From Rhodospirillales bacterium (GTDB lineage Bacteria; Pseudomonadota; Alphaproteobacteria; Micavibrionales; Micavibrionaceae), in contig CP060239.1 of assembly GCA_023898785.1 (NCBI GenBank), positions 1,417,921 to 1,481,920 of the forward strand: DNA of 64,000 bases. The letters run 5' to 3'. The translations under genes and the position numbers were made by a program. Of this stretch, positions 7,626 through 37,645 are shown one piece after another (position 1 is the first letter of the stretch; the number at the start of each line of letters is the position of its first letter). The notes beneath the pieces are model-generated. The model had not been told where the DNA came from, searched no databases, and was given only the letters and a program-made list of their open reading frames with translations.

Positions 7626-8642
7626 CTAGAATTGTTGATCATCCGCCTTTTTGGCCAGATCTTCAATATTTTCCGGCGGCCAGCCTTCAACCTGCATGCC
7701 CAGATGCAAGCCCATGATGGTCAGCACTTCCTTGATCTCGTTCAGAGATTTCCGGCCGAAGTTCGGTGTACGAAGCATGTCGCTTTCGCTTTTCTGAACC
7801 AGATCCCCAATGTAAACGATGTTGTCGTTTTTCAGGCAATTGGCAGAGCGAACAGAAAGTTCAAGCTCTTCAACCTTTTTCAGCAGGTTTTTGTTGAACG
7901 GCAATTCATGCTCTTCTTCTTTCTCGGTGGCCACTTCCGGCTCATCGAAGTTCACAAAGACTTGCAATTGATCCTGCAAGATGCGCGCCGCGAAGGCCAC
8001 AGCATCTTCCGGCGTGATAACGCCGTTTGTTTGCAATGTCAAAGTCAGCTTATCATAGTCGGTGATTTGGCCAACGCGAGTATCTTCGACTTCGTAGGTG
8101 ACTTTGCGGATCGGTGAGAACACGCTGTCGACCGGAATGAGGCCCACAGGGGCTTCTTCCGGGCGGTTTTGTGCAGCCGGACGGTAGCCTTTGCCTGTAT
8201 CCACGGTCATTTCCATGGAGAGCTTGGCACCTTTGTCCAGTGTGCAAATCACCAGATCAGGGTTCATAATTTCAATGTCAGCACCCGCTTCGATTTGTGC
8301 GGCGGTGACTTCGCAAGGGCCTTCTGCGGAAAGGCGCATTTTCTTCGGTCCCTCGGCATGCATGCGCACAGCCAAAGCTTTGATGTTCAGGATGATGTCT
8401 GTGACATCTTCGCGAACGCCTTCTATGGACGAAAATTCGTGCAATACACCATCGATTTGCACAGCTGTAACGGCAGCGCCTTGCAAAGATGAGAGCAGGA
8501 TCCGGCGCAGGGCGTTGCCCAGCGTTAAGCCAAAGCCACGCTCCAAAGGTTCTGCGACGACTTTCCCGGTGTTGGGAACTTCTGAGTGTGAAATATCGAG
8601 TTTGCTTGGCTTAATCAGTTCTTGCCAGTTTTTCTGTATCAT
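7626..8642 (-). CDS. rpoA: DNA-directed RNA polymerase subunit alpha
   Basis: [15 protein letters not shown]... is canonical RpoA. The ATG at 8642 is preceded by GAAGGA; the track ORF starts at an upstream GTG. Confidence 0.95.
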
Positions 8643-19202: not shown

Positions 19203-19499
19203 TTATAATTCCGTGCCCGCAGGCTGTTGTTCTACTCTTATAAAATTACCGTCTTTGTTCTGTATCATATGACCGTTCACGCCATTTAAAATTTCTTCGC
19301 TGGTTGCCAAAACTTCGCTTCCGTCTATGAGAGAAACGGGAGCGGAGCTTGCAACAAGTTTCCAGACATCACCGTACACCCTCTCTTTTGTTTCAGCCTC
19401 TCCTAACCTTATAAGTTCGTCAATTCCCGCAACAGGGATGTCTACGAAGAATTCGTCCGATTTTCCATGTTTTCGAAATGAAATTTTTAACTCAGACAT
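19203..19499 (-). CDS. orphan small protein (98 aa) inserted between rplV and rpsC
   Basis: Same strand as the operon, SD AAGGAG 6-7 nt before the ATG, AT-richer than neighbours. No family recognised. Confidence 0.5.
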
Positions 19500-21100: not shown

Positions 21101-21307
21101 CTAAAGCCCAAAATGACTTTCGTAGTCTTGTTGTACCTCTCCTAAAAGACAGCACTCTACCGGACCCTCACCTTGCCGCGCATCTCTCGTAGCGGCAGCT
21201 ACAAGACTGTCTGTAATGCCGAGTCCTTCACCACGCGCCGCATCATTTTGGATATCTCTCAATGCCAGCTGTTCTGCTGTTTTTCTTGCTGCTTTAACAA
21301 AACTCAT
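21101..21307 (-). CDS. orphan small protein (68 aa) inserted between rplW and rplB
   Basis: Same strand, SD AAAGGAGAA about 6 nt before the ATG. No family recognised. Confidence 0.45.
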   Translation of the reverse strand: MSFVKAARKTAEQLALRDIQNDAARGEGLGITDSLVAAATRDARQGEGPVECCLLGEVQQDYESHFGL

Positions 21308-27405: not shown

Positions 27406-27600
27406 CTATTTAATTCCACAAATATCTGGACCATAAATTTCTAAATACTCTCGCACTGCTGCCGTATAATTCTCATGGCGAGGCGCATAAACACTATCCA
27501 ACTCCAAGCGTTGTTCTGCATTAAGCCCCCCGAGAGCCACAGCCGCCGTGTGCTGCGCCACAATATCCATACCCTGTTCAAAATGTTTGTACTCAGACAT
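27406..27600 (-). CDS. orphan small protein (64 aa) inserted between rpsL and rpsG
   Basis: Same strand, with 15-nt and 13-nt gaps to its neighbours. AGGAG overlaps the rpsL stop about 12 nt upstream of the ATG. AT-richer than flanks. Confidence 0.4.
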   Translation of the reverse strand: MSEYKHFEQGMDIVAQHTAAVALGGLNAEQRLELDSVYAPRHENYTAAVREYLEIYGPDICGIK

Positions 27601-28927: not shown

Positions 28928-31900
28928 TTAACCGTTGGCGGCTTCTTTGGCCTCTTCTTCGGGCGCGGACGTATCAGCGGCGGAAAGCGCGGCGGCGTCA
29001 TTGGCACCTTCGAGGATTTCCTCTTCAGGCTGGGGCTGGCTATCCAGGATCACCTGATCCCGCTCGGCCGCGATGCGTTTAACGCCCGCAGTATAAGCAC
29101 CTGTCCCAGCCGGGATGAGGCGGCCAACAATGACGTTTTCTTTCAGTCCAAACAGCTTGTCGACCTTGCCTTGTACGGCAGCTTCGGTCAGAACGCGTGT
29201 TGTTTCCTGGAAGGACGCGGCCGAGATAAAGCTGCGCGTTTGCAGAGATGCTTTGGTGATCCCCTGCAGAACGGGCTTGCCAACCGGCGGGCGCTTACCT
29301 TCAGATTCGTATTTGGCGGTGATCTCGTCGAATTCACTGCGCTCGACATGTTCTCCGACAAGGAATGTCGAGTCGCCGACTTCGGTGATTTCAACCTTTT
29401 GCATCATCTGGCGTACAATCACCTCGATATGCTTGTCGTTGATTTTCACCCCTTGCAGGCGATAAACATCCTGCACTTCATTGGTGAGGTAGTCTGCCAA
29501 GGCTTCCACGCCCATAACATCGAGGATGTCGTGCGGCACCAGAGCCCCGTCGAGGATCGGGTCGCCTTTGCGGACGAAGTCACCTTCATGCACGGCCAGG
29601 TGACGCCCCTTCGGCACAAGATATTCGCGCGGTTCGCCATCATCGGTGTTGGCCGGCTTCACAGCGATGCGGCGCTTGGACTTATAGTCTTTTCCGAATT
29701 CAACGTAACCATCGATCTCGGAAATGACGGCGAAGTCTTTGGGCATGCGGGCTTCGAACAGCTCGGCCACGCGCGGCAGACCGCCGGTAATGTCACGGGT
29801 TTTCGATGTCTCACGCGGAATACGTGCGATGATGTCACCCGCTTTGACTTCCTGCTCATTTTCGGCACTCAAAATCGTATCCACAGACAGATAGTAGTTC
29901 GCAGGCAAGCCGTTTGGCAGGTTAATCACTTTACCTTTCTTATCGAGCAGGCTGATGCGTGGTTTCAGATCGCCGCCTTTTGGCTGGGAACGCCAGTCGA
30001 TAATTTTCTTGGATGTAATCCCTGTTGCTTCATCAACATCGTCAGTGACGGAAACGCCGTCAACGAGATCGAAATAGTGGGCCACACCGTCTTTTTCGGT
30101 GATGACAGGCAATGTGTATGGGTCCCATTCGGCCATTTTGTCGCCGGCTTTGACCTTTTTGCCATCCTCGACCAGAAGTTTTGCACCGTATGGAACGCGG
30201 TGCGTGGCTTTTTCGTGGCCTTTTTTGTCTTTCAGGACAATTTCGGTATTGCGGCCCATGACGATGGTGAGCCCTTCCGAGTTTTTTACAACGTTTTGAT
30301 TGCGCACTTCGATGGTGGCATCGATGTTGGCATCAACATGAGAACGCTCGGCACCTTTTTGCGCCGCACCGCCAATGTGGAAAGTTCGCATTGTCAGCTG
30401 CGTACCAGGCTCGCCGATAGATTGCGCCGCCATAACGCCGATCGCTTCGCCGATATTGACCTCGGTGCCGCGGGCCAAATCCCGGCCGTAACATTTGGCG
30501 CAGATGCCGTTATGTTCGCCTTCACAGGTCAGGACAGAGCGAACGAGCACTTCATCAATTCCGGCGGTTTCGATTGCTTCGGTATTGTTTTCATCAAACA
30601 TTTCGGCGGCTTTAACGATTGTATTACCGTCAAGCGGGTTGATGACATCGACAGAGGCGCAACGGCCCATGATACGTTCGGACAAGGATACTACCACGTC
30701 AGCACCGTTCATGACTGCGCGCATAGAAATGCCTTTTTCCGTGCCGCAATCTTCTTCGGTAACGATGGCATCCTGGGCCACGTCAACAAGGCGGCGGGTC
30801 AGGTAACCGGAGTTGGCTGTTTTCAGAGCCGTATCGGCCAGACCTTTACGCGCACCGTGCGTGGAGTTGAAGTATTCCAGCACGGACAGACCTTCTTTAA
30901 AGTTTGAGATAATCGGCGTTTCGATAATCTCACCAGACGGCTTGGCCATCAAGCCGCGCATCCCGGCGAGCTGGCGGATCTGCGCTGCAGATCCCCGTGC
31001 TCCGGAGTGAGCCATCATGTAAACGGCATTGAGGTTGCCGCTTTCTATATTAGAGATTTTGCTCATCATCGCGTCGGCTACGTCATCGGTACATTTCGAC
31101 CAGATATCAACGACCTTGTTGTATTTCTCACCTTTGGTGATCAGACCGTCTTGATATTGCTGCTCAAATTCCTTGACCTTGTCATTGGCTTCACCAACCA
31201 GTTTCTGCTTCTCATCGGGGATGATGAGGTCGTCTTTACCGAAGGAAATCCCAGCGATACACGCATAGCGGAAGCCGAGCTTCATCAAACGGTCAGCGAA
31301 GATCACAGTGTCTTTCTGGCCGCAGTGACGATAGGATTCCTCGATCACACAGGAGAGTTCTTTTTTGGTCAGAACCTGGTTGATCATGGAAAACGGAAGT
31401 TCCGGATGGCGCGGCAAGAGATCAGAGATTAAAATCCGACCCGGAGTCGATTCAACGATTTCTGTTTTCGGGTCACCATTTTCGTCAACTGTGTGATAAC
31501 GGCACTTAATTTTTGCGTGCAGGGAGAGTACTTTTTGTTCCAAGGCATGGGTAATTTCACCTGCGCCGCGGAAGATCATACCTTCGCCGGGTTCGCCATC
31601 GCGCGCCAATGACAAATAATACAGACCCAGAATAATATCCTGCGTCGGCACAATCACGGGTTTGCCGTTTGCGGGCGAAAGGATGTTGTTGGTTGCCATC
31701 ATCAAGCAGCGCGCTTCAAGCTGGGCTTCAATGGATAGCGGCACGTGAACGGCCATCTGGTCACCGTCAAAGTCGGCGTTGAAGGCGGTACATACCAGCG
31801 GATGTAAGTTGATCGCCTTACCTTCGATCAGTACAGGTTCGAAGGCCTGGATTCCAAGTCGGTGGAGCGTTGGCGCGCGGTTAAGCATCACCGGGTGTTC

Positions 31901-33154
31901 GCGGATGACTTCTTCGAGGATATCCCAAACTTCGGGGCGCTCTTTTTCAACCATTTTTTTGGCAGCCTTGACCGTGGAGGCCATGCCGTAAAGTTCAAGT
32001 TTGTGGTAGATGAAGGGCTTGAACAGCTCGAGCGCCATTTTCTTCGGAATACCGCACTGGTGCAGTTTCAGCTCAGGACCGACCACGATGACGGAACGGC
32101 CAGAATAGTCGACGCGTTTTCCGAGCAAGTTCTGGCGGAAACGGCCCTGTTTCCCTTTGAGCATGTCAGAAAGAGATTTCAACGGGCGTTTGTTGGCGCC
32201 GGTAATGACGCGGCCACGGCGACCGTTATCGAAGAGTGCATCCACGGATTCCTGGAGCATGCGTTTTTCGTTCCGGACGATAATGTCGGGGGCGCGCAGT
32301 TCGATCAGGCGTTTCAGGCGGTTGTTGCGGTTGATAACGCGACGATACAGATCGTTCAAATCAGACGTTGCAAAACGGCCACCATCCAAAGGCACCAGCG
32401 GGCGTAGTTCGGGCGGCAGCACGGGAATGATATCGAGGATCATCCATTCAGGGCGCGCGCCGGATTCGAGGAAGCTGTCGAGCAGTTTCAGGCGCTTGAC
32501 GAGTTTCTTGCGTTTGGCTTCGGAGCCGGTTTCGCGTAGATCTTCTTCGACCTGCACCTTGATTTCTTCCAGATCGAGACTGGAGAGAATTTCCTTCATG
32601 GCCTCGGCGCCGATACCGGCGCGGAAATTATCTTCGCCGTATTCGTCCTGCGCGGCGTAGTATTCTTCTTCGTTCAAAAGCTGGTATTGCTTGAGCGGGG
32701 TCATGCCCGGTTCGACGACAATGAAGTTTTCGAAATACAATACGCGCTCAAGGTCCTTAAGTGTCATGTCCATAATCAAGCCGATGCGCGATGGCAAGGA
32801 TTTCAAGAACCAGATGTGAGCGACCGGGCTGGCCAGGTCGATGTGGCCCATGCGCTCGCGGCGGACTTTGGTCAGGGTGACTTCAACGCCACATTTTTCG
32901 CAGATGATGCCTTTATATTTCATACGCTTGTATTTGCCGCACAGACATTCGTAATCCTTGATTGGGCCAAAGATGCGCGCGCAGAACAGACCGTCTTTTT
33001 CCGGCTTGAAGGTCCGATAGTTAATCGTCTCAGGCTTTTTGACCTCACCGAACGACCAGCTGCGGATTTGCTCCGGGCTTGCAATCGAAATACGGATGGA
33101 GTCAAAAGACTGCGGCCCTGTCGGCTGGCCAAAGAGGTTCATGAGTTCGTTCAT
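28928..33154 (-). CDS. rpoC: DNA-directed RNA polymerase subunit beta'
   Basis: Canonical RpoC, including the NADFDGDQM catalytic motif. SD AAGGAG is upstream. Confidence 0.97.
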
Positions 33155-33191
33155 TTTTCGTGCTCCTTAATTTGGGCTAATTTTTATATCT

Positions 33192-33380
33192 TTACTCGTG
33201 GCAAATGACAGTCAGATTACCTGCTGCCTGAAGTGCATTAACTTGTTCTGGCGAACCGCGCCCTGAATAAACAGCTTGCTCACCATCAAAATTAGTCATA
33301 TGCAACTCAGATATATTTTCCAATAGCGTTGCCGCTTCTTCATCATCTGGTCTTGCTATTACGCTAAAAACTTGTTGCAT
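33192..33380 (-). CDS. orphan small protein (62 aa) inserted between rpoB and rpoC
   Basis: ATG at 33378-33380, only 2 nt after the rpoB TAG stop. GGGAG lies 6 nt upstream, inside the rpoB 3' end. AT-richer than both flanks. The track's longer version overlaps rpoB. Confidence 0.45.
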   Translation of the reverse strand: MQQVFSVIARPDDEEAATLLENISELHMTNFDGEQAVYSGRGSPEQVNALQAAGNLTVICHE

Positions 33381-33382
33381 TA

Positions 33383-36300
33383 CTAGCTCCCGCTTGACTG
33401 TTTCAAATCGACATTGAGGCATAGGGCCTTCAATTCCTTGGTCAGAACGTTGAAGGATTCCGGAATACCGATTTCGAAGTTGTCTTCGCCGCGGACGATG
33501 GACTCGTAAACTTTGGAGCGACCGGCCACGTCATCGGACTTGACGGTGAGCATTTCCTGCAAGGTGTAAGCCGCGCCGTAAGCCTGCAGAGCCCAAACCT
33601 CCATCTCTCCGAAGCGCTGACCCCCGAACTGGGCTTTACCGCCCAGCGGTTGTTGCGTGACCAGAGAGTACGGCCCGATGGAGCGGGCGTGGATTTTATC
33701 ATCCACCAAGTGGTGCAGTTTAAGCATGTACATGTAGCCCACGGTCACATCGCGGTGGAAGTAATCTCCGGTGCGGCCATCGATCAGGCGGACCTGACCG
33801 GAGGTTTTGAGACCGGCTTTTTCGAGCAGCTCGGAGATGTCGGCATCGTGCGCCCCGTCAAAGACAGGCGTGGCCATCGGCACGCCTTCGCGCAAATTGC
33901 CTGCCATTTCGACGAGTTCCTTATCATCAAGCTTGGAGACCTTGCCTTTGTACTCGCTGTCACCGTAAGCGTCTTCGAGCTTGGCTGTGAGTTTTTTCTT
34001 CTCGGCGTCGCTCATTTTCTTATTGGACTGGAAGGCATCGATGATTTCACCGATCTGGCGGCCCATAGAAGCCGCAGCCCAGCCAAGGTGGGTTTCAAGG
34101 ATCTGCCCCACATTCATCCGTGAAGGCACGCCAAGCGGGTTGAGCACGATGTCAACGGGCGTTCCGTCTTCGGTGTAGGGCATGTCTTCTTGCGGGATCA
34201 CTTTCGAGACCACCCCTTTGTTTCCGTGACGACCGGCCATTTTGTCACCGGGCTGCATTTTACGTTTCACAGCCACGAAGACCTTGACCATCTTCATTAC
34301 ACCCGGAGGCAGTTCGTCACCCCGCTGGAGTTTTTCGACTTTATTCTCGAAACGCTCCTTGATGTTGTCAACCGCATCGTCAAACGTTCTGGACATGGCT
34401 TCGATTTCTTCCATGCGTTTTTCGTTTTCAATGGCGATCTGACGCCACAGACCGCGTTTCTCGATAGCGTCGATGTCAGCGGCAGTAAGCTTCGTGCCTT
34501 TTTTCAGTTTGGCATCTTTCGGCGCGCTTGCGACCGTGTTGCCAATCAGGATGTCGCGCAGACGGCCATAGAAGCCGTCTTCCAGAATACGGCGTTCGTC
34601 GTCGCGGTCTTTGGCGAGGCGTTCGATTTCCTGCGCCTCGATGGACAAGGCGCGAGCATCTTTATCGACGCCACGGCGGTTAAATACGCGCACATCGACG
34701 ATGGTGCCAACAGCGCCGGGTGGCAGACGTAGAGATGTATCCTTCACATCGGCGGCTTTTTCACCAAAGATGGCGCGCAGGAGTTTTTCTTCCGGCGTCA
34801 TCGGGCTTTCGCCTTTTGGCGTAACCTTACCGACGAGAATATCACCGGGGCCGACTTCAGCGCCGATATGCACGATCCCGGCTTCGTCAAGGTGGCGTAG
34901 AGCCTCTTCCCCGACATTCGGGATGTCACGGGTGATTTCTTCGGTGCCCAGCTTGGTGTCGCGGGCCATGACTTCGAATTCCTCAAGGTGGATTGAGGTG
35001 TAAACGTCATCACGCACGATGCGCTCGGATACGAGGATGGAATCTTCGTAGTTGTAGCCATTCCAGGGCATGAAGGCGACGAGGATGTTTTTCCCCAGCG
35101 CCAGTTCACCCATATCGGTTGACGGACCATCGGCGATGATGTCACCAGCCTTCACCTTATCACCTACCTTCACCAGAGGTTTCTGGTTGATACAGGTGCT
35201 TTGGTTTGAACGCTGGAATTTCGCGAGCTTGTAAATGTCCACAACCGGTTCATCCGCGTGCAGTTCTTCCGTGGCCTGAACCACGATCCGCGTGGCATCA
35301 ACCTTGGTCACCACACCAGCGCGGCGTGCAGAGACAGCAGCGCCAGAATCACGAGCCACAGTGCCCTCCATGCCTGTTCCGACGATCGGGGCAGAAGATT
35401 TGAGCAACGGCACAGCCTGGCGCATCATGTTGGAGCCCATCAGCGCACGGTTGGCATCATCGTTTTCCAAGAACGGGATAAGGGATGCGGCCACAGACAC
35501 CATTTGCTTCGGCGACACGTCGATAAATTCGATTTGGTCAGGCGGAGTCATTTCGTTTTCACCGGCGCGGCGACATGATACGAGGTCGTTGAGAAACTTG
35601 CCGGATTTATCGAGTTGTGAGTTGGCCTGAGCGATTGTCCATTTTGCCTCTTCCATCGCAGACATGTAGACCACTTCGTCGGTGACTTTGCCATTTTCAA
35701 CGCGACGATAGGGGCTTTCGATGAAACCATACTGGTTGACGCGGGCAAAGGTGGCCAGAGAGTTGATCAAACCGATGTTCGGACCTTCGGGCGTTTCAAT
35801 CGGGCAAATGCGGCCATAGTGAGTCGGGTGCACGTCGCGGACTTCAAAGCCTGCGCGTTCGCGGGTCAGACCGCCGGGACCGAGTGCTGAAAGGCGGCGT
35901 TTGTGCGTAATTTCCGAGAGCGGGTTGGTCTGGTCCATGAACTGGGAGAGCTGGGATGAGCCAAAGAACTCACGCACAGCGGCTTGCGCCGGTTTAGAGT
36001 TGATCAGATCGTGCGGCATGTAGGTGTCGATTTCAACGGAAGACATACGCTCACGAATTGCGCGCTCCATACGCAGCAGGCCGATGCGGATCTGGTTTTC
36101 CATCAATTCACCAACAGAGCGTACGCGGCGGTTACCGAGGTTGTCAATGTCATCGACTTCGCCCTGACCGTCTTTCAATCCGTGGAGATATTTTAGAATG
36201 GCGAGAATGTCGGCTTTTTCAAGTACGCGGAACTGGTCGTCCGCTTCGAGATCGAGGCGCGCATTCATTTTGACACGGCCAACCGGCGAGAGGTCATAAC

Positions 36301-37645
36301 GTTCAGGATCAAAGAAGAGTGACTGGAACAGCGCATCGGCAGATTCAACCGTTGGCGGCTCACCGGGGCGCATGACACGATAAATATCGATGAGCGCTTC
36401 TTCACGTGTATCGCATTTATCAATCAGCATTGTATTGCGGATATAAGGCCCGACATTGAGGTGGTCGATTGCCAAAATCGGCAATTCCTTGATTCCGGCT
36501 TCATTGATGGCGGCCAAATCTTCTTCGGTGATTTCGTGGCCGGCTTCATGGGTAACCTGACCGGTTTTGGCGTCAAACAGGTCGGCGGCCAAATACTGAC
36601 CGACCAATTGCTCTGCAGAAACCAGAATATCTTTCAGACCATCTTCAACAAGCTTTTTTGCTTTACGTGGTGTGATTTTATCACCCTCTTCGGCGACGAC
36701 CTTGCCGGTTTTAGCATCAATAAGATCCGCCACCAATTTTACGCCGCGCATTGCTTCTGGATTGAATGATGTTTTCCAGCCCTTTTTATCTTTGTTATAG
36801 ATGCGCGTTTCATAAAATGTGCTCAAGATTTCTTCATTGGCCATGCCTTGAATCATCAACGGATCCACCTGCTCATCATTTTCTTCACATTGCTGACGGT
36901 AGGTGGCTGTTTCCACACCATCAAGAGCACGTAAAAGCGTTGTGACCGGCAATTTACGACGGCGGTCAATGCGCACATACATGTGGTCCTTGGCATCGAA
37001 CTCGAAGTCTAGCCAAGACCCACGGTAGGGAATAACGCGCGCTGCAAACAGATATTTACCAGAGGTGTGGGTTTTGCCGCCATCATGGTCGAAAAACACG
37101 CCCGGAGAGCGGTGCATTTGAGAAACGATGACGCGCTCCGTACCGTTGACCACAAATGTACCGTTTTGGGTCATCAGCGGCATATCAACGAGATAGACAT
37201 CTTGTTCTTTAATGTCGCGGATAGAGCGCAGGCCGGTATCTTCATCAACATCGAAGACAGACAAGCGAAGCGTAACGCGCAGCGGCGCAGCATAAGTCAT
37301 GCCGCGAGTCTGGCATTCTTCGACATCGTATTTTGGCGCTTCGAGTTCATATTTCACAAAGTCGACTTCCGCTTTATCGGAGAAGTCCTTGATCGGGAAA
37401 ACTGTGGCGAGAACTTCCTGCAGACCTTGCAGCGTACGGTCTTCGGCGGGGATACCATCTTGTAGGAACAATTCATAAGAATGGCGCTGAACTTCAATCA
37501 GATTCGGCATTTCAGCAACTTCATTAATGCGGCCATAACTGCGGCGAACGCGCTTGCGGCCGGTAAAGCTTTCAATATTGTTTGCCGGTGGAATTTTAGC
37601 TGATGATTGTTTGTTTGTTTTAGTCGTGGTTTTTGCTGCGCTCAT
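33383..37645 (-). CDS. rpoB: DNA-directed RNA polymerase subunit beta
   Basis: Canonical RpoB blocks throughout (1420 aa). Confidence 0.97.

Follow-up and report, generated by a model that had tools for sequence, protein, structure and literature searches.

In the alphaproteobacterial order studied here, the junction between rpoB and rpoC is a hotspot that has repeatedly acquired and exchanged unrelated small genes. One of the inserts found there is a 62-codon ORF, hereafter ORF62, which lies in the 64,000-nucleotide stretch of DNA that we analyzed (the window) and which, on comparative grounds, is a genuine protein gene under purifying selection on its amino acid sequence. Together with a single homologue, P0004, its predicted product makes up a new two-member family of small proteins. 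We consider it probable that ORF62 is accessory cargo of this lineage-specific hotspot and that its job is unrelated to RNA polymerase. The window comes from an alphaproteobacterium with a closed genome of 2.24 Mb and 49.5% GC (G000).

All features of the locus are on the minus strand. rpoB (RNA polymerase beta, 1420 aa; 33383-37645) was recognized from the ORF list and from Pfam Rpb2 domains 1-7, with E values down to 5e-141, and rpoC (RNA polymerase beta', 1408 aa; 28928-33154) from the ORF list and Pfam Rpb1 domains 1-5. The 3' end of rpoB reads AGC GGG AGC TAG, with the TAG stop at 33385-33383, and two bases (33382-33381) separate this stop from the ATG of ORF62 (33380-33378). A Shine-Dalgarno-like GGGAG (33387-33391) is thus located inside rpoB, 6 nt upstream of that ATG. 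ORF62 itself (33192-33380), which we recognized from its translation, its one full-length homologue, and its AlphaFold fold, ends with a TAA stop at 33194-33192. It is followed by a 37-nt spacer (33155-33191) that carries the rpoC Shine-Dalgarno sequence AAGGAG at 33168-33163 and leads to the rpoC ATG at 33154. These coordinates agree with a sequence-only reading of the locus, which had placed the ATG 2 nt past the rpoB stop, with GGGAG in the last rpoB codons. The 62-residue translation quoted in that reading was reproduced exactly, and the distance of 37 nt to an rpoC ATG with an AAGGAG of its own is likewise borne out by the sequence.

The insert had also been described as AT-richer than both subunit genes, and its composition bears this out. 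Its GC content is 0.41-0.44, compared with 0.52-0.62 in the flanks, and GC at third codon positions (GC3) is 0.28 in ORF62 and 0.33 in P0004 versus 0.64-0.70 in the flanks. Across the long ORFs of G000, GC3 averages 0.54 (sd 0.08); values of 0.29 or less occur in just 0.08% of these ORFs.

The minus strand between 32900 and 33700 contains no promoter-like or terminator-like site. Since its strand offers no promoter or terminator of its own, we infer that ORF62 is part of the rpoBC transcription unit, so that read-through from rpoB would transcribe it. The sole signal of its own that we found is the Shine-Dalgarno sequence embedded in rpoB. Ribosomes ending at the rpoB stop would most likely reinitiate 2 nt downstream, aided by GGGAG; alternatively, translation of ORF62 might depend on fresh initiation at that motif, while rpoC would initiate separately from its own strong AAGGAG. 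In the relatives, this motif reads AAGGAAG, which departs further from the consensus than the AAGGAG of the two lineages with the ORF. A structured RNA in the ORF62 region was also considered and rejected (no Rfam match; unremarkable RNA fold z-score of -0.54).

A HMMER search of 1.84 billion representative proteins, performed without a length filter, recovered a single true homologue of ORF62. This protein, P0004 (61 aa), aligns over its full length without gaps at 56% identity (E 6.5e-11). The three remaining HMMER matches are long repetitive giant proteins and were judged spurious. The possibility that ORF62 is a fragment of a larger gene was rejected, given that the search without a length filter yielded only the 61-aa homologue. 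A profile built from the two alleles found no further member among 5.8 billion proteins, 320 genomes of the order, IMG/VR, and JGI metagenome contigs, and a scan of genome contigs using ORF62 uncovered no additional allele. The initial description of ORF62 as an orphan is therefore nearly right, yet one other allele exists among about 15 billion predicted proteins.

The host of P0004 is an unbinned sister lineage. At least 10 short metagenome contigs from it carry the gene, and the slot is the same on every one of them. On the 10 contigs inspected, the upstream gene stops 2 nt before the ATG and the downstream gene starts 33 nt past the stop; contig L073 confirmed these neighbors as rpoB and rpoC. 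The junction on L073 reads TCA GGG AGT TAA CA ATG, with GGGAG again 6 nt from the ATG. The stop/start arrangement is thus TAG-TA-ATG in G000 versus TAA-CA-ATG in the sister lineage, and GGGAG is conserved though the stop and serine codons differ. The termination-reinitiation geometry proposed from the window therefore gains support, as both the stop/start spacing and GGGAG are kept in the sole homologue. GGGAG does not occur in the rpoB tails of relatives without the ORF. The spacer between ORF62 and rpoC is also largely conserved in the sister lineage (ATTAGCCC.AATT.AAGGAGCA).

As a side observation, RpoB proteins of the genus are hypervariable in their final 4-6 residues (SSGS, SGSNN, SGSNS, SGK, SGGSN, SGGN, and others). 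The tail that contains GGGAG (window 33383-33400, minus strand) is seen only in the two ORF-bearing lineages, which encode it via entirely different serine codons.

ORF62 and P0004 are 59% identical at the nucleotide level (41% divergence), and the frame has stayed open with no indels. The differences number 22, 16, and 37 at codon positions 1, 2, and 3, corresponding to identities of 64, 74, and 39% (chi-square p = 0.009). The Nei-Gojobori method gave dN 0.43, pS 0.70, a saturated dS of about 2, and dN/dS 0.21, values obtained from one pairwise comparison of 61 codons in which synonymous sites are saturated. The remaining two frames of the minus strand are full of stops in both lineages, and by a rough estimate a 62-codon open frame would arise by chance at the composition of the insert with a probability of ~2% per frame. 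A chance frame, or a spacer that is merely open, was rejected in view of the homologue, the codon-position pattern, and the shared predicted fold. Given the homologue, the dN/dS, the open-frame pattern, and the AlphaFold folds, ORF62 appears to be a translated gene under purifying selection.

A related explanation is that the open frame serves solely to have the inserted spacer covered by ribosomes, protecting rpoC against Rho-dependent polarity and maintaining coupling, with the peptide itself having no function. Given Rho polarity, an untranslated stretch of 230 nt in an essential operon would be a liability; moreover, ORF62 takes up nearly the whole insert, leaving 2 nt on its 5' side and 37 nt on its 3' side. 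Selection on ribosome cover alone, however, sits poorly with second codon positions that are 74% conserved when third positions are 39% conserved, with a dN/dS of 0.21, and with separate predictions that give both alleles the same compact fold. In addition, most relatives with spacers of 80-130 nt do without an ORF. We regard this explanation as very improbable.

Comparison of the 3'-terminal 1020 nt of rpoB and the 5'-terminal 558 nt of rpoC groups G000 with the P0004 host as sisters and leaves G005, the closest reference genome, outside them (informative sites 95/20/34 for rpoB and 38/26/24 for rpoC). G005 shares 87-88% nucleotide identity with G000 in the tail of the polymerase gene, and it holds no trace of the ORF62 family. 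Indeed, the family is missing from 40 relatives, including 20 of the 20 sampled congeners (G005 among them), as well as from the 320 genomes of the order, and it occurs only in the species of G000 and in one sister lineage. No second copy of the insert was found in G000 by protein search or short-word blastn. Contigs that encode the exact ORF62 protein number at least 23 and stem from several sample series; two NCBI MAGs encode it as well, and ten aligned contigs are 100% identical over 1201 nt. Among the P0004 contigs, 7 of 10 were aligned and are identical over 401 nt; one A9V variant exists. In the contigs sampled, both lineages are thus clonal. The simplest history would be a single gain in the ancestor of the sister lineages, or else an older gain followed by replacement in G005.

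The usual contiguity of rpoB and rpoC was checked outside the order as well. Measured from the rpoB tail to the rpoC start, which is our own metric, the median distance in 94 other alphaproteobacterial families (one genome each) is 89 nt, and only 3 of the 94 reach the 249 nt of G000. Within the order, the spacer was measured in 35 genomes and was at most 60 nt in 15, 80-130 nt in 9, and at least 230 nt in 11. Occupancy of the junction thus amounts to 31% (11/35) in the order, compared with 3/94 in the other families (Fisher p = 3e-5). The sequence-only reading had proposed a survey of this spacer in relatives, and had counted a variable spacer without a preserved ORF among the findings that would together speak against its proposal. 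Relatives do differ greatly in this spacer, but in the one sister lineage that shares the insert, purifying selection has retained the ORF.

The contents of the long spacers in the 10 other genomes of the order are unrelated. G005 carries a 188-aa ORF and a 95-aa GIY-YIG protein together with palindromic repeats. In G006, the slot holds a FliL-like protein of 134 aa with a signal peptide, which starts 8 nt past the rpoB stop (L057 2537-2941). A DUF5678-like ORF of 72 aa is found in G012, an 83-aa ORF in G035, and a 134-aa ORF in G040. G021 has a putative toxin-antitoxin pair, in which a nucleotidyltransferase gene precedes an unscanned ORF of HEPN-like appearance by eye (L058 2340-2973). The insert of G028 is a 108-aa ORF, YciI-like by sequence reading and likewise unscanned, 4 nt past the rpoB stop (L063 453-779), whereas G032 harbors a 122-aa ORF along with an ORF that resembles cytidine deaminases by our reading of its HAE...PCGHC motif (L062 195-979). 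Finally, G001 contains repeats only. About 320 nt downstream of rpoB in G015 (G015:C109, about 7680-8125) is an rpoC start that is cut short to residues 1-42. When ORF62 was compared with the slot occupants of G012, G035, and G005 by hhalign, no relation was detected (probabilities of 0.3% or less).

Some of these inserts have features of their own. A second copy of the rpoC ribosome-binding site and of the first 17-32 coding bases is located beside the inserts of G001 and G005. The duplicated start in G005 reads AAAAAGGAAGCGCAAAATGAACGAACTGATGAA (L056 1-1445, minus strand), and in G001 (L055 2460-3000) the two copies of the rpoC start differ at four synonymous positions. The insert of G015 possibly also has a duplicated rpoC 5' end. 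The element with the duplicated start carries the GIY-YIG gene (95 aa) in G005 and palindromic repeats alone in G001. Palindromic repeats of the GTCATCCC..GGGATC type lie directly 3' of the rpoB stop in both G001 (L055 2460-2530) and G005 (L056 1380-1440, minus strand). From these arrangements, the elements in G001 and G005 seem to have entered within the rpoC start, bringing or recreating a replacement 5' end.

Regarding the origin of ORF62, the flanking genes of G000 and the sister lineage provide a yardstick. The last 340 codons of rpoB are 94.2% identical at the nucleotide level (dS 0.27) and the first 186 codons of rpoC are 90.1% identical (dS 0.60). The proportion of synonymous differences (pS) is 0.70 for the ORF62 alleles versus 0.23-0.41 for the flanks, and beta and beta' are 99% identical between the lineages versus 56% for the ORF62 protein. 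Because the pS of the ORF exceeds that of the flanks and because GC3 is ~0.3 in both alleles, the comparison suggests that the two alleles predate the split of their hosts and have not undergone amelioration in place. The AT-richness and the excess synonymous divergence in turn suggest import from outside, or allele exchange via the very conserved flanks, given that rpoB and rpoC would offer recombination anchors on either side. Part of this excess may stem from constraint on codon usage in rpoB and rpoC, which can lower their dS. Another AT-rich orphan of G000, located between rplW and rplB, has a dS of only 0.41 despite the more distant pair compared (G000 and G005).

A foreign origin of ORF62 is suggested by composition and divergence; searches of IMG/VR, JGI metagenome contigs, and G000 itself (short-word blastn) found no donor, mobile-element scar, or flanking repeat. 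Of the three relatives, G000 is the one that deviates over the final ~50 nt of rpoB. This deviation is only a hint of a breakpoint, because the rpoB tail is hypervariable across the genus.

The same observations can be read as birth in place, with ORF62 arising de novo, rather than by import, when an AT-rich spacer between rpoB and rpoC had expanded in the shared ancestor of both lineages. In favor of this reading, no other homologue was found among 1.8 or 5.8 billion proteins or in the viral and metagenome contigs. The AT-rich composition resembles intergenic DNA, mobile-element scars do not flank ORF62, and the site was already transcribed and visited by ribosomes. A very young gene would, however, rarely be predicted with confidence to have an idealized ferredoxin-like fold. 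Moreover, the pS of 0.70 between the alleles is far above that of the flanks (0.23-0.41) and of the other junction orphan (0.32), GC3 is still ~0.3 in both alleles despite their divergence, and the junction demonstrably takes foreign genes in relatives. We therefore consider a de novo origin unlikely.

The ORF62 product has a calculated mass of 6.7 kDa, a pI of 4.3, and a net charge of about -8, and the pI of the two alleles spans 4.1-4.3. AlphaFold2, supplied with the two-sequence alignment, predicted a beta-alpha-beta-beta-alpha-beta arrangement (pLDDT 89, pTM 0.72) with the elements E3-9, H14-20, E24-31, E35-42, H44-52, and E57-61. P0004, submitted as a lone single sequence, gave the same topology with a pLDDT of 82. 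Both proteins are thus confidently predicted to adopt a ferredoxin-like alpha/beta fold, and the compact alpha/beta mini-protein that had been anticipated from the translation is what structure prediction returned for both alleles. The residues conserved between them are located mostly on beta1, beta3, and beta4 and in the G-x-G-S turn preceding helix 2. In the model, this conserved face of the beta-sheet suggests a binding or oligomerizing module of the ACT/PII kind.

Foldseek searches of the PDB and BFVD with the ORF62 model returned generic ferredoxin folds, including ACT, PII-like, and RRM domains, the NikR C-domain, and designed ferredoxin folds. The best E value was 5e-3, with no match at or below 0.001, and TM-scores were 0.55-0.76 overall and 0.55-0.69 for the ACT/PII domains. 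This result fixes the predicted fold class of ORF62 and nothing more. Compared with stand-alone ACT/PII-like domains (PDB 1zpv, 3ibw, 1hwu, 2f1f; TM 0.55-0.69), the model matches in topology and size, but ORF62 has no sequence or profile similarity to them (no Pfam ACT, ACT_4, or P-II match). In addition, the ligand loop of ACT domains lies between beta1 and alpha1, whereas the Gly-rich loop of the ORF62 model lies between beta3 and alpha2, and no gene for a partner enzyme or transporter is located near ORF62. At E values up to 1, Pfam gave ORF62 only a spurious Rbsn match (0.21), NCBIfam gave none at E up to 10, and neither ORF62 nor P0004 had a credible match in Pfam, NCBIfam, PHROGs, or PADLOC.

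G000 also harbors acidic orphans at three junctions between ribosomal-protein genes, all on the minus strand. The one between rplW and rplB (21101-21307) is intact in the same slot of G005, with 78% identity, dN/dS 0.30, and dS 0.41 (pS 0.32). The one between rpsL and rpsG (27406-27600) appears frameshifted in G005, and the one between rplV and rpsC (19203-19499) is unique to G000. All three have a pI of 4.7-4.9, and none has a Pfam, PHROGs, or PADLOC match. They are unrelated to ORF62 (hhalign probabilities of 0.3% or less).

The sequence-only reading hinted, from the position of ORF62, at an RNA polymerase subunit, and small proteins that associate with the polymerase are known, among them omega/RpoZ, the Firmicutes delta/RpoE and epsilon/RpoY, and phage T7 Gp2. 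ORF62 is likewise small, acidic, and encoded such that it would be co-produced with the core subunits. One may suppose that it is a lineage-specific accessory subunit or regulator whose output would match that of beta and beta' in a fixed ratio through translational coupling, and which would bind the core enzyme. Its exact position between rpoB and rpoC, with a coupling geometry kept in two lineages, would fit such a role, as would its small size and strong acidity (pI 4.1-4.3), its confident predicted fold, the purifying selection, and the clustering of conserved residues on beta-strands that might form an interaction face.

Several lines of evidence speak against this supposition. True RNA polymerase subunits are conserved across phyla, whereas ORF62 is limited to two sister lineages and lacks sequence or fold homology to the small polymerase-associated proteins. 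None of the 20 congeners has it, not even G005 with a polymerase tail that matches that of G000 at 87-88% of nucleotides, and the slot is occupied by unrelated content in 10 other genomes of the order. Unrelated acidic orphans are also found in the ribosomal-protein junctions of G000, and ORF62 evolves fast (56% identity) relative to beta and beta' (99%). No Pfam or NCBIfam match links it to polymerase subunit families, and its top 50 Foldseek PDB matches are generic ACT/PII/RRM-like domains, with no polymerase-binding protein among them. Because the junction takes unrelated genes in this order, position in the slot is weak evidence for a polymerase function. The absence from 20 congeners, the unrelated slot contents elsewhere, and the similar orphans at ribosomal junctions argue that position does not imply a subunit, and a polymerase factor appears improbable to us. 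We give about as little credence to the idea that ORF62 is a fast-evolving, clade-limited modulator of the core enzyme, made one-for-one with it, and that the slot is a dedicated swap site for modulators or selfish genes.

The reading that we prefer, accessory cargo whose job is unrelated to the polymerase, would have ORF62 enter the junction no later than in the last ancestor that the two sister lineages share. The phenomenon matches known gene-exchange hotspots flanked by core genes and is unusual in that it occurs inside an essential co-translated operon. Hotspots of horizontal gene transfer between conserved core genes were reportedly described by Oliveira, Touchon and Rocha in 2017. The rpoB-rpoC slot resembles them in that its bounding genes are conserved while its content differs between close relatives, in that its cargo includes toxin-antitoxin and nuclease genes, and in that spread by recombination through conserved flanks is plausible here too. 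Unlike those hotspots, this slot is located between the genes for the two largest polymerase subunits. Its inserts are also tiny, being mostly 1-2 genes (60-190 aa), all of them on the operon strand and promoterless, and the rpoC ribosome-binding site and 5' end were duplicated with the insert in G001 and G005 (possibly also in G015).

A further parallel is offered by phage morons and free-standing homing endonucleases, which are selfish genes wedged between conserved phage genes. They too are small, AT-rich, precisely inserted, and expressed from the host operon, and a GIY-YIG gene occupies the slot in G005. ORF62 differs from them in having no nuclease motif or PHROG match and in residing on a bacterial chromosome.

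A full-text literature search turned up no description of genes inserted at the rpoB-rpoC junction. Our data indicate that genes can be gained even at this junction, which joins the two largest RNA polymerase genes and ranks among the most conserved gene adjacencies of bacteria, and that it is occupied in about a third of the sampled genomes of the order. The junction may thus serve as a natural test bed for how inserted genes are expressed in essential operons (by coupling or from their own ribosome-binding site), how inserts spread (by flank recombination or through elements causing a duplication of the rpoC 5' end), and whether such genes are ever recruited to the surrounding machinery. Should ORF62 prove to bind RNA polymerase, its genomic position alone would have revealed a new lineage-specific transcription factor.

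Two observations concern the contigs of the sister lineage. Approximately the first 160 positions of L073 are not rpoB; they read in frame like a different protein and join rpoB abruptly, and the scaffold is therefore probably chimeric. In addition, the sister-lineage contigs are all under 2 kb, and the same sample series yield long contigs of the G000 species, which suggests assembly collapse between two co-occurring close relatives.
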